From a virus (taxonomy: Duplodnaviria; Heunggongvirae; Uroviricota; Caudoviricetes), in IMG/VR virus record IMGVR_UViG_2579778919_000007: DNA of 13,175 bases; one strand, given 5' to 3'. Positions 3,001-6,000 of the stretch are shown one piece after another. How positions within the stretch are numbered: position 1 is the first letter of the stretch; every line of letters starts with the position of its first letter. A program made the position numbers.

Positions 3001-6000
3001 GAGCTGTTAACGCAATGCTGATTGATATCCTCGCTACGATGGCACGAGTGGACTACGAGACACGCAGAGCACGCCAAGCGCAGGGCATCAAGCGTGCCAA
3101 AGCCGAGGGGAAATATAACGGGAAGTCTAAGGATGAGAGCGCCCGTGAAACTGTCCGCGCTATGCTTACCGTTGGGAATAAACCAGAGCACATCATGAAA
3201 GCTGCCGGGATAAGCCGGGCAACCGTGCTTGCCAGGCAGTCAACGCGGCGGGGATAGAGTAGTGGTACGGTACTATATTGGGATATGGTACTCACAATGC
3301 CGCTTATAACCCCTTACATCCCAGCATCCCAACAAACCTACTGAAAGTTATCAGCAAATCATTCATCAAGTCAGACAGGGCAAGGCTTACAAAGGTGTTG
3401 ATTAAAAAATAATCAAATTAGAGTTTCTACTGTGGCAAAACGAACACCACTCGCTTGTGCATACGTAGTGACCTACATGAAAGTCACTACTAAAGAGGGA
3501 CAGAACATTCAACGTCACTGCTGACATGAAATTCTCTCTACGGGCAGCTCGGCGCTGCCGTCCTGCGCCTCGTTCTAAACTCACCTTAATTTTGGAGATT
3601 TCACCATGCCAACGAACCTACGCCGTTTGCTTGCGCAGGCTGCCGACGCTGACCCGCTCAATACCGCAAACGCAGATGTACAGCAAATGGTCGCTGACGG
3701 GATTGTTATTCGGCGTTCCAAGATATGCCCGATAAAGCATAAACCCGTTAAGGCGGCATACAACACGAAGACCGAAGAGTTTTATTACAATGCTGATGGC
3801 TCCGCTATGACCCTGCGGGAATGGCGAGCGCTGCATGGTGTTCAACCGAAGAAGCAAAAACAGCGCTCTGACACGGGGTTGCGGCAAGTCATCCAGCCCG
3901 GTGACGCAATTCATTGCCGACGCGCTGAGATAGAAATGTGGCTCAACAAGAAGCCTGCTCGGTATGCTGACCCGCTGCCGCCTGATTTTCCCGGTGTTCG
4001 CGTAGATGATGCCGCATTGAAACCGCGCGAGCACGCCGTTTCGGCATCGACAACCGGGCAGAATGCTTTTCTCAAAGCCTGCCGCGAGTTCCTGATTTGT
4101 GATGAGAAGACTATACACCGCATCAACAGGGGCATGAATAAACTGGAAGCGATGCGCAATTCAGATTTCAAACGCTACGGGGACTCAGCGGAGTTTCGTC
4201 AATTGTGGTGTGGAGAGTCGAAACCTACCGAGGATAAATTTAACAGTACAAATCATCATTGTGACCCAAACGGCTTGGCAGTGTCGCCGTCTGTGCCGTC
4301 ACTGAATACAGCCTCTTATGAGTTTCGCCCGCTGGTTCGCTGTGACCGAAACGCACGCGTTAGCCTGTTGCCACCCGATGGGCTGGAGTGGAGGCCGGGG
4401 CAGTTGTCTGTTGCTGATGCGATCTTCTCCCGTGGTAGTGATGTGCTGGCCGTTCTGCCTACGGGTTATGGCAAGACCGCCGCCTTCGCTTATCCATTGA
4501 TTTATGAGTCCCGCGCTGGCGTTGGCCTGTCTGTAATCGTGGTTCCCACTAATACCCTAAAGCGCCAGATTCTCCGCCAGTTGCGGGATGCTGGCGTTCA
4601 CGCTGTGGCATTCGGTGACAAGTTGCCGAGGCACCGCAACGCTCAACAACTCGCGGGGCTGGCTGCCGGGGCGTTCCGTGTTGCTGTCGTTTCACCTGAG
4701 CATCTTGTTCTGTCGAGTCAGGTCTTCGCGGCGCTGATGGCTTACGGCGTTGATCGTTTTATCATCGACGAAGCGCACACGGTTAAAGACTGGGATTTCC
4801 GACCCGCTTACGAGGCCATGCAGCACTCGCTACAACATGCCTTTCTTTCGGCTCAACGCTGCGTATTTACGGCTACGCTGCTACGCGAAAATGAGCGCAG
4901 TTTAATGGCGTCGCTTGGCTGCCGTGGTGATTACGTAACATTCCGTGCTGATGTTGCTCGCGAAAATATCCAGTTGACGACAGTCAGACAGTGCCGCGAA
5001 CGTTTCCGAGCGGCTATTGGTCTGGTCGAGGCTCTGCCGAAAGAAGAGAAGACGCTCATTCTCGTCAATGACCTTAAGACGTTGCGGGCGTACCTGAAAC
5101 TCTTAGGCGACCGGGCGCGCCCATATCACTCGAAGACGATGCACTTGAGTAACGAAGAACGCCACGCAAACGCTGAGTGGTTTGCCACTACGCCGGGCGC
5201 AATTCTGATTGCTACTAAAGCCTTCGGGCTGGGGGCTGATGTGCCAGACATTCGCAACGTCATCGTTACATATATTCCTGATGACCTGCCTGACCTCATT
5301 CAGATGATTGGACGAGCCGGGCGCGATGGTCAACCTGCCCGCGCGTTTCTGCTGTGGTCATCGCTGGCGCTGGATGCTGCGCCTGATGAGCTTGCTTACT
5401 TCTACCGCCCTGAAAACTGCAACTGGCAGTACATCGCTAAATACCTCTGAGTCGAAAGGCTCCCCCTCATTCTCTGGAGTTAATCCATATGCCTGTTACC
5501 GAACATGCGCAGCGTCGTGCTACGCGTGCGGATGCGCTCGTCACCGCACAACTTGCCTTCGCCCTGAACGGATATTCCTTCGATGGGTTAGCTGAGCGCC
5601 ACCGCCAGACTCTTAATCGTGCGGCCATCTTGCGCCAAGCTGGTACGCCGCTACAGCGGTATTGCCTGCTCAATCACTGTGAGCCTTGGGAATGTCTGGC
5701 CGCTGTGCTGAATAGATTCCGACGCCGGGAGGATGGCGCTCGTCTTTGGCCGACCTATCGCATGGCTCGTGAGGTCTTTAATGGGACTGTTCACCCTGCC
5801 AACAAGACGCGCGACGAGATATTTCAATCTGTGCAGCGTCGCCTCTTTTTACCAAAACCAGTACACGCCGAAGTAATCCAGTACCTGCGCGTAATGGGGC
5901 TGACAGGAGTTAATCCGCATGACTAAAACCGAGTTTGAAAATGAAACGTGGCGAATGAAAGGCTTGCTTCTTGGGGCGCTAATCCGCCGCCTTGAGGAAG

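Follow-up and report, generated by a model that had tools for sequence, protein, structure and literature searches.

The 13,175-nt stretch of Escherichia coli sequence considered here (NZ_LR536431.1 970503-983677, filed as virus record IMGVR_UViG_2579778919_000007 and referred to below as the window) encodes on its plus strand a 614-residue helicase (3606..5450, stop codon included) that joins a minimal RecQ-like motor to an N-terminal region found only in its own family. The gene belongs to the conserved core of an integrative element of 13-15 kb, which encodes no other NTPase and no other protein of more than 360 amino acids (aa). The simplest reading of the gene content of this element is that of a phage satellite with a shell made of its own capsid protein, which would be packaged by a Bonnellvirus helper through a cis signal that both share. 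Within such a satellite, the helicase may act as a Rep-like replication helicase, the motor that would open the element DNA for a borrowed replisome, a reading that is given a probability of roughly 40%.

The RecQ-like motor and its N-terminal region

The coding sequence starts with an ATG that lies 8 nt behind a Shine-Dalgarno GGAG (3594..3597, plus strand, read from the sequence), and Met1 together with the whole N-terminal region is kept in homologues down to 42% identity. RefSeq labels the protein (WP_001142870.1) as a "DEAD/DEAH box helicase" and nothing more. Residues 261-600 (4386..5405, plus strand) constitute a RecQ-like superfamily 2 (SF2) motor with two RecA lobes and motifs 0, I, Ia, II, the aromatic loop, III, IV, V, and VI. 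Six of the signature stretches are located exactly, all on the plus strand: motif 0, WRPGQ (aa 262-266, nt 4389-4403), PTGYGKT (aa 285-291, nt 4458-4478), IIDEAH (aa 386-391, nt 4761-4778), the RecQ aromatic loop WDFRPAY (aa 396-402, nt 4791-4811), FTATL (aa 421-425, nt 4866-4880), and motif VI, GRAGRDG (aa 569-575, nt 5310-5330). Pfam recognizes no domain ahead of aa 261; its matches are DEAD (E=2e-22) and Helicase_C (E=2e-14). The top sequence matches in the PDB are the RecQ cores 4tmu (E=7e-31) and 1oyw (E=4e-29), which cover aa 261-585, and the top Foldseek matches are RecQ (E~1e-13), BLM, and WRN. The Walker A lysine K290, the DExH residues D388, E389, and H391, and R570 are invariant in 39 sequences of the helicase family; judged by these conserved residues, the protein is an SF2 enzyme that constitutes a catalytically complete but minimal RecQ-type motor.

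Canonical RecQ uses Zn-binding, winged-helix, and HRDC domains to hold and split DNA. In the window helicase, these domains are replaced by a C-terminal tail of 39 aa past motif VI (5331..5447, plus strand), in which the only cysteine, C605, is not invariant across the family. The models for RecQ_Zn_bind, RQC, and HRDC (PF16124, PF09382, and PF00570) find no match in the protein even at a Pfam threshold of E<=10, whereas the ordinary RecQ proteins recovered in the homologue search do carry them. The first-pass annotation of the window, made from the sequence by eye, had described a full RecQ-type motif set, a stop about 40 aa past motif VI, and the absence of RQC and HRDC; all the motifs it quoted are in place, with Pfam, the PDB, and Foldseek in agreement, and the protein does end at aa 614 without either domain. 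A 1057-aa E. coli protein, P0070, joins the C-terminal half of the helicase to the phage tail-fiber domains PF07484 and PF03406, a fusion that probably reflects a rearrangement or an error of assembly or annotation.

The protein is RecQ-like, as far as sequence criteria go, and not a RecQ. It has the SF2 core motifs I-VI, motif 0, and an aromatic-rich loop between motifs II and III, and in the alignments of the PDB matches WRPGQ and WDFRPAY fall opposite the FRPGQ and W(GH)DFRPEY of RecQ. It lacks the Zn-binding subdomain, the RQC winged helix, and HRDC, the last of which is present in many RecQ members, although not in all, and it stays below the curated cut-offs for the family (recQ_fam, 136.3 against 219.8 bits; recQ, 146.8 against 640.2; PRK11057, 111.3 against 1015), the RecQ family models tested being TIGR00614 and TIGR01389. 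The cores of E. coli RecQ (1OYW) and Cronobacter sakazakii RecQ (4TMU/6CRM) likewise consist of two RecA lobes with RPGQ, Walker A, DExH, W-x-DFRP-x-Y, and motifs III-VI. The helicase is ~26-31% identical to them over the core only, is encoded by a mobile element and not by a housekeeping locus, and adds an orphan N-terminus of 260 aa.

This N-terminal extension measures ~260 aa, since motif 0 begins at aa 262; the first-pass annotation, which was right in finding it free of helicase motifs, overestimated its length at 280 aa. Neither Pfam nor NCBIfam nor the PDB yields a match within it. Full-length homologues of 614-635 aa occur from 92% down to 42% identity, all of them in Enterobacteriaceae; the next matches in the list are already ordinary RecQ proteins, ~31% identical and aligned in the core alone. 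Searched against 1.84 billion protein representatives, the profile built from aa 1-260 retrieves only the helicase family, its fragments, and two small proteins; it has no match in 50,697 phage records and a single one among the plasmids, where the matching record is a misfiled 4.9-Mb chromosome. The earlier description of the N-terminus as uncharacterized, within an architecture that was not recognized, is thus borne out at this scale. Invariant residues are W73, G78, the QPGD at 97-100, H143, G151, N153, R160, C165, R172, R184, F197, W201, and C246. Pairwise dN/dS (nonsynonymous over synonymous substitution rates) lies between 0.02 and 0.22 in every N-terminal segment, compared with 0.09-0.13 in the motor, and therefore the whole N-terminal region is a protein under purifying selection.

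Four parts can be distinguished in this region, all on the plus strand. Module A (aa 25-80, 3678..3845) is predicted to be a small α/β domain in the order helix, strands, helix. It is followed by a basic linker (aa 81-125, 3846..3980) that contains the invariant QPGD and the helix AEIEMWL, with a predicted local distance difference test score (pLDDT) of 27-38 and dN/dS of 0.02-0.19; the net charge of aa 25-120 is +10. Module B (aa 126-205, 3981..4220) is predicted to be helical, and the segment that leads into the first RecA lobe (aa 206-260, 4221..4385) is modeled with a pLDDT of 78-83 at aa 221-240 and is the most variable, mosaic part of the protein. AlphaFold models of the N-terminal region alone and of the full-length protein give pLDDT <50 for aa 82-167, and within the modules they are usable only for aa 25-80 and for a helix at 167-191.

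Module B also exists on its own. In the divergent clade of the family, whose helicases are 42-46% identical to that of the window, genes for proteins of 83-85 aa lie directly upstream of the helicase (9741-9989 in locus L002 and 5364-5621 in locus L006, the latter being P0116), and their products align with helicase aa ~128-205, with ten invariant residues in common. This neighboring paralogue indicates that module B is an independent unit; the main clade has no separate module-B gene. Synonymous divergence (dS) jumps around residues 125 and 205 of the helicase in comparisons with loci L010-L014 (against L010, for example, from 0.14-0.47 before the jump to 1-2 after it), indicating that the N-terminal modules have been swapped between elements by recombination at module borders. 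A search for co-variation of the N-terminal alleles with neighboring genes, the upstream region, or variants of the cis site described below found no partner, only mosaicism. As far as could be established, the combination of a minimal RecQ core, an orphan N-terminus, and a neighboring paralogue of one module is a new helicase architecture.

The integrative element and its ties to T7-like phages

The element was compared across 11 loci from Escherichia, Enterobacter, Kluyvera, Kosakonia, and Trabulsiella, the divergent clade included; L006, one of the two divergent-clade loci, lies on a contig that stops before the structural genes. In all 11 the helicase gene occupies the same place after the resolvase, and the order of the core is kept. 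This core begins, on one strand, with a noncoding site (2092-2169), followed by the serine recombinase, the helicase, proteins of 145, 68, and 58 aa, and a 187-aa helix-turn-helix (HTH) protein, and continues with proteins of 79 and 228 aa, a 115-aa protein in some loci only, the 331-aa capsid protein, an HNH protein, proteins of 141 and 99 aa, and Endo VII. To the right of the core come variable cargo and then a tyrosine integrase, and to the left more variable cargo. The mobile island that the first-pass annotation had supposed as the setting of the gene can thus be specified as the core of this integrative element. In E. coli the helicase gene is found as a single copy in 60 of 5,426 complete genomes (~1%), among them the enteropathogenic E. 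coli (EPEC) reference E2348/69.

Several features tie the element to T7-like phages. The major capsid protein (331 aa, 8610..9605, plus strand) is of the Autographiviridae type (phrog_267, E=3e-67) and is 57.7% identical to the capsid protein of Escherichia phage forsur, a Bonnellvirus of 42.5 kb; helper-type genomes measure ~42 kb, of which the element is about one third. A scaffold-like protein of 228 aa (7348..8034, plus strand; phrog_1018, E=5e-5) matches the C-terminal part of the forsur scaffold weakly (E=5e-4), and a TerS-like protein of 68 aa (5919..6125, plus strand) is weakly similar to the small terminase of T7-type phages, with a below-cut-off match to Pfam DNA_Packaging_2 (E=3e-4), a match to phrog_891 (E=4e-3), and 47% identity to forsur TerS over 32 aa. 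A comparison of k-mers for promoters shared with forsur found nothing outside the capsid gene.

The strongest of these links is the noncoding site at the start of the core (2092..2169, plus strand; core 2101-2134, AAAATTGCACGCTTATGGTTGCCCCTCCCTCAAC), a single-copy sequence of which 40-78 nt are common to the elements and to Bonnellvirus phages. It recurs at 2587-2620 in L004, at 6314-6341 in L002, and at 25921-25959 in phage forsur (L005), and it is kept in every element though its flanks are not. Eleven phages of ~42 kb carry it once each, at 82-92% identity; five were checked and belong to Bonnellvirus, and the remaining six, of 41-43 kb, infect Escherichia, Enterobacter, and Pantoea. In these phages it stands just after the last late gene (48 nt past it in altidsur), in a noncoding stretch of ~1.5 kb before the first early gene. 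In T7-like genomes the ends are expected in this interval. The shared site is likely a packaging or terminus signal common to elements and phages, its distance from the true terminus not being fixable in phage records that are arbitrarily linearized. A repeated phage promoter was considered as another identity of the site and was ruled out by its single copy.

What the element lacks is as characteristic as what it contains. Genes for a portal, a large terminase, tail, lysis, a polymerase, or a primase were not detected in family scans of all open reading frames (ORFs), and since every ORF other than the helicase stays at or below 360 aa, the element could not accommodate a portal, a large terminase, tail genes, a polymerase, or a primase. 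Its features are otherwise those of a satellite: an integrase, attachment repeats at a tRNA gene, a fraction of the helper's size, and a partial set of virion genes together with a shared cis site. In the literature searched, which included queries with the RefSeq protein accessions, no publication on the helicase or the element was found, and the satellite literature searched held no description of a satellite of a T7-like phage.

The remaining core genes are known in varying degree. The small serine recombinase of the resolvase/invertase type (2637..3257, plus strand) precedes the helicase in every locus. At least three alleles exist, which differ strongly (26-31%, 80%, and 95-98% identity) and do not track the helicase allele. 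As a speculation, the recombinase could act like the Cre of phage P1 and cyclize a terminally redundant genome once this has entered the cell. The 145-aa protein directly 3' of the helicase (5489..5926, plus strand) has no family, PDB, or phage match, and the 187-aa protein has no match in the PDB. The HNH_3 endonuclease (9622..10149, plus strand), although a core gene, shifts in position: in the main clade it comes after the capsid gene, whereas in the divergent clade it adjoins the helicase region (9238-9729 in L002, 4857-5351 in L006), with only the module-B paralogue between it and the helicase. An Endonuclease VII-type junction nuclease (10885..11286, plus strand) is assigned by family matches, and the tyrosine integrase (12093..13175, minus strand) marks the far end of the element.

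At either end, the element has a variable slot filled with cargo of lower GC content (1-1930 and 11300-12090 in the window, 576-2431 in L004, and 17889-18791 in L022). The window copy carries low-GC genes without an assigned function (phrog_19541 and phrog_14518); elsewhere, the cargo includes an Eco29kI restriction-modification (R-M) pair in L004 and an AbiTii protein in E2348/69. By comparison with P4 and the phage-inducible chromosomal islands (PICIs), these ends are probably defense hotspots. The L004 copy, 14,774 bp long, is bounded by a 25-bp repeat that is presumably the 3' end of a tRNA-Leu gene (leuX), and the E2348/69 copy adjoins a tRNA-Leu gene. A circular form was considered for the 14.8-kb L004 sequence; its ends are the attachment repeat, which an integrated copy explains equally, and no claim is made. 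The window copy lies beside a tRNA-Gly gene, an IS1 (L001 19176-20015, just right of window position 13175) abuts its integrase, and no right-hand attachment repeat is detectable. Given the IS1 and the missing repeat, this copy may be immobilized.

A proposed replication helicase and its rivals

In the Rep-like reading, infection by the helper phage would activate the element, and the N-terminal region would supply the specificity for DNA or for a partner in place of the missing RecQ C-terminal domains. The ATP-driven motor would then unwind the element DNA in the 3'-to-5' direction, and a borrowed replisome, either the T7-type polymerase and primase-helicase of the helper or that of the host, would copy it into concatemers, which would subsequently be packaged. 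This role is consistent with the invariance of all catalytic residues in the 39 family members, with the absence of any replication gene besides the helicase in the element, and with an N-terminus that is unique to the family, basic, and under purifying selection. The location of the helicase gene, between the cis site and recombinase on one side and the structural genes on the other, may be likened to that of DNA-metabolism genes in T7-like genomes. Tentative is the more specific proposal that the helicase is the replication initiator of previously undescribed, capsid-encoding satellites of virulent Bonnellvirus podophages, and as such the first satellite "Rep" of RecQ/SF2 type. Equally tentative, within the initiator proposal, is the suggestion that the N-terminal modules recognize satellite DNA or recruit the T7-type replisome of the helper, with the stand-alone module B regulating the helicase.

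A number of observations weigh against a Rep-like helicase. No ORF of the element contains a primase domain and no primase gene is adjacent, unlike the situation in P4 alpha or the Pri-Rep of PICIs, and we know of no SF2/RecQ-type protein that serves as a satellite initiator. Scans for direct, inverted, and tandem repeats found no iterons or tandem repeats near the helicase, and the 350 nt upstream of it are not kept across the helicase family. Phages that do not encode the helicase nonetheless carry the one cis site that is conserved in all elements, which therefore works in its absence. DNA binding by the N-terminal region is suggested by its charge alone, its fold not being confidently modeled, and it is likewise from genes and sites that the element is predicted to depend on a helper, to excise, and to replicate.

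The helicase might instead process recombination intermediates and branches in the manner of T4 UvsW or T5 D10. It would migrate or unwind branched DNA, D-loops, and R-loops and, together with Endo VII, produce and tidy concatemers through recombination-dependent replication ahead of packaging, with no opening of an origin. Endo VII-type and HNH nucleases are core genes of the same element, in the divergent clade a single gene separates the HNH gene from the helicase downstream of it, and a weak PHROG match (phrog_6819, E=5e-5) bears the name "Holliday junction branch migration helicase". It is textbook knowledge that RecQ-family motors work on branched DNA and that T7-type packaging requires concatemers, and the repeat scans that found no origin-like repeats fit this reading as well. 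What the protein has in common with UvsW or D10, however, in sequence or in fold, does not go beyond the generic SF2 core, the helper phage has its own junction endonuclease and exonuclease, and this reading does not account for the lack of any other means by which the element could start its replication. On balance, branch processing is not the likely function, though a serious candidate; that the helicase works on the element's own DNA in one of these two ways, as a Rep-like helicase or on branches, is rather probable. Interference with the helper is a good deal less likely than branch processing. Here the helicase would act on helper forks, transcription complexes, or packaging substrates so that resources are diverted to the satellite, and its N-terminal modules would bind a helper protein. 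The stand-alone module-B paralogue in one clade would suit a protein-protein interaction or a regulatory mimic, and the N-terminal modules are mosaic between elements, as an arms race predicts. Yet N-terminal dN/dS is as low as in the core, with no sign of diversifying selection, and direct evidence for a helper partner is lacking, even though functions that interfere with the helper are common in known satellites (e.g., PMC9410903 for the phage-inducible chromosomal island-like element, PLE).

Two further proposals are very improbable. According to the first-pass annotation, aa 60-112, whose sequence reads as quoted there, resemble an AlpA/excisionase-type winged helix, which would make the protein an activator or excision regulator fused to a helicase. 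By eye, AEIEMWL does resemble the AEIDEWL of AlpA, and family scans of the window proteins recognize no AlpA or Xis gene in the element. An alignment of 22 AlpA-family proteins was built and its profile compared by hhalign with those of the N-terminal region, giving probabilities of only 1.6% (aa 20-118) and 10.6% (aa 1-260) over 17-28 aligned columns, with limited sensitivity, since the profiles are shallow (effective sequence number, Neff, ~2.1-2.5). The best local match, of 28 columns, places AEIEMWLNKKPARY (aa 100-127) opposite the recognition-helix stretch ATIYDWLNPKSPRY of AlpA and not opposite its C-terminal W..EI..WL. No Pfam HTH family, those of AlpA and excisionase (PF05930 and PF12728) included, matches any of 16 family members at E<=10, the profile of aa 20-118 has no match in the PDB, and the stretch is modeled at low confidence (pLDDT 27-38) as mostly unstructured. 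The winged helix in aa 60-112 is accordingly not supported; given the shallow profiles and the poor model there, the stretch may at most contain a small HTH-like element.

The other proposal is that of a defense motor carried as cargo, either the DpdF of a 7-deazaguanine Dpd system or a PsyrT-like toxin. DpdF, from the Dpd modification/restriction island, likewise has a RecQ-like SF2 core, and one PADLOC "DpdF" model, PDLC02858, fits the helicase almost perfectly (E=2.7e-268), matching aa 111-614 (nt 3936-5450) over all 504 model positions at near-identity, while the core is also recognized by PsyrT and by further DpdF models of PADLOC (E=1e-39 to 1e-51). Because of this full-length match at near-identity, PDLC02858 was evidently built from this helicase family itself, starting at the internal Met111 and cutting off module A. 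Against the NCBIfam DpdF equivalog NF041063, the helicase scores 128.5 bits with a cut-off of 550, and among the window proteins there is no family match to a dpd gene (the DpdA transglycosylase and its partners, dpdA-K) or to a PsyrA-like partner. The context largely refutes this proposal: because the helicase is a syntenic core gene in all 11 loci and defense-type cargo (Eco29kI R-M, AbiTii) varies and sits at the element ends, the part of the earlier annotation that allowed for a defense or anti-defense motor is disfavored, and its alternative of replication or DNA processing is preferred. No known initiator domain or standard phage helicase emerged either, the N-terminus matching only its own family. 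The PADLOC match, together with the label "ATP-dependent DNA helicase RecQ" in several source records, could give rise to false defense or repair calls.

The region upstream of the helicase contains an AT-rich stretch and a palindrome, neither of them kept across the family, and an Rfam scan found no RNA family. A sigma-70-like promoter match (3386..3413, plus strand) is a consensus match only, such matches being no more numerous than in shuffled sequences. The palindrome of 13+13 nt, GTAGTGACCTACA/TGAAAGTCACTAC (3465..3490, without strand), lies between this promoter-like match and the helicase ATG, is not kept in other elements, and is a candidate operator. The resolvase stop codon lies within window 3219-3300, a stretch made up of a further block, GCAACCGTGCTTGCC.GGCAGTCAACGCGGCGGGGA ... 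GTAGTGGTACGGTACT, and, behind it, an imperfect palindrome, TACTATAT-N4-ATATGGTA. This stretch is kept, at a variable distance of -387 to -938 nt from the helicase start, in elements whose resolvases are only 26-31% identical, and could represent a cis site or the joint of a recombination event.

Comparison with known satellites and phage helicases

To our knowledge, every well-studied phage satellite replicates by means of an SF3/AAA+ initiator-helicase, a primase-helicase, or a plasmid-type RepA. P4 alpha and the Rep and Pri-Rep proteins of Staphylococcus aureus pathogenicity islands (SaPIs) and PICIs are of SF3/AAA+ type, are often fused to a primase, and act on iteron origins beside their genes. 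The window helicase resembles them in being the product of the largest gene, which heads the main operon of an integrase-bearing element without a polymerase, and in joining a motor to a family-specific extra region. It differs in that its motor is of SF2/RecQ type, that it has no primase, and that iterons were not found in the repeat scans. Should the Rep-like reading be true, a 14-kb element that is copied during infection by a fast, host-destroying podophage would have a novel means of initiating or maintaining its replication on borrowed machinery, and a minimal RecQ motor would obtain its substrate specificity from its N-terminal side and not from the usual C-terminal domains.

T4 UvsW and T5 D10 likewise combine an SF2 motor with an N-terminal accessory domain, do without the RecQ C-terminal domains, and have an Endo VII-type resolvase alongside. 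No specific homology to them was detected: there is a weak PHROG match to the D10-like family, and both are absent from the top PDB-search matches shown.

The closest counterparts of the element as a whole are the capsid-forming PICIs and the P4-like satellites, which are likewise integrative elements sited at tRNA genes, with variable defense-type cargo and some morphogenesis genes in place of a complete virion set. The variable defense cargo of the element could affect the therapeutic use of T7-like phages. As far as could be established, the setting, that of a capsid-encoding satellite linked to T7-like phages, is new as well, the motor itself being of a known kind. The AlpA, Pri-Rep, portal, protease, Sid, Psu, and Delta markers of PICIs and P4 are missing from the element in the family scans, its morphogenesis genes are instead of the T7-like podovirus type, and its cis site is one that it has in common with Bonnellvirus.

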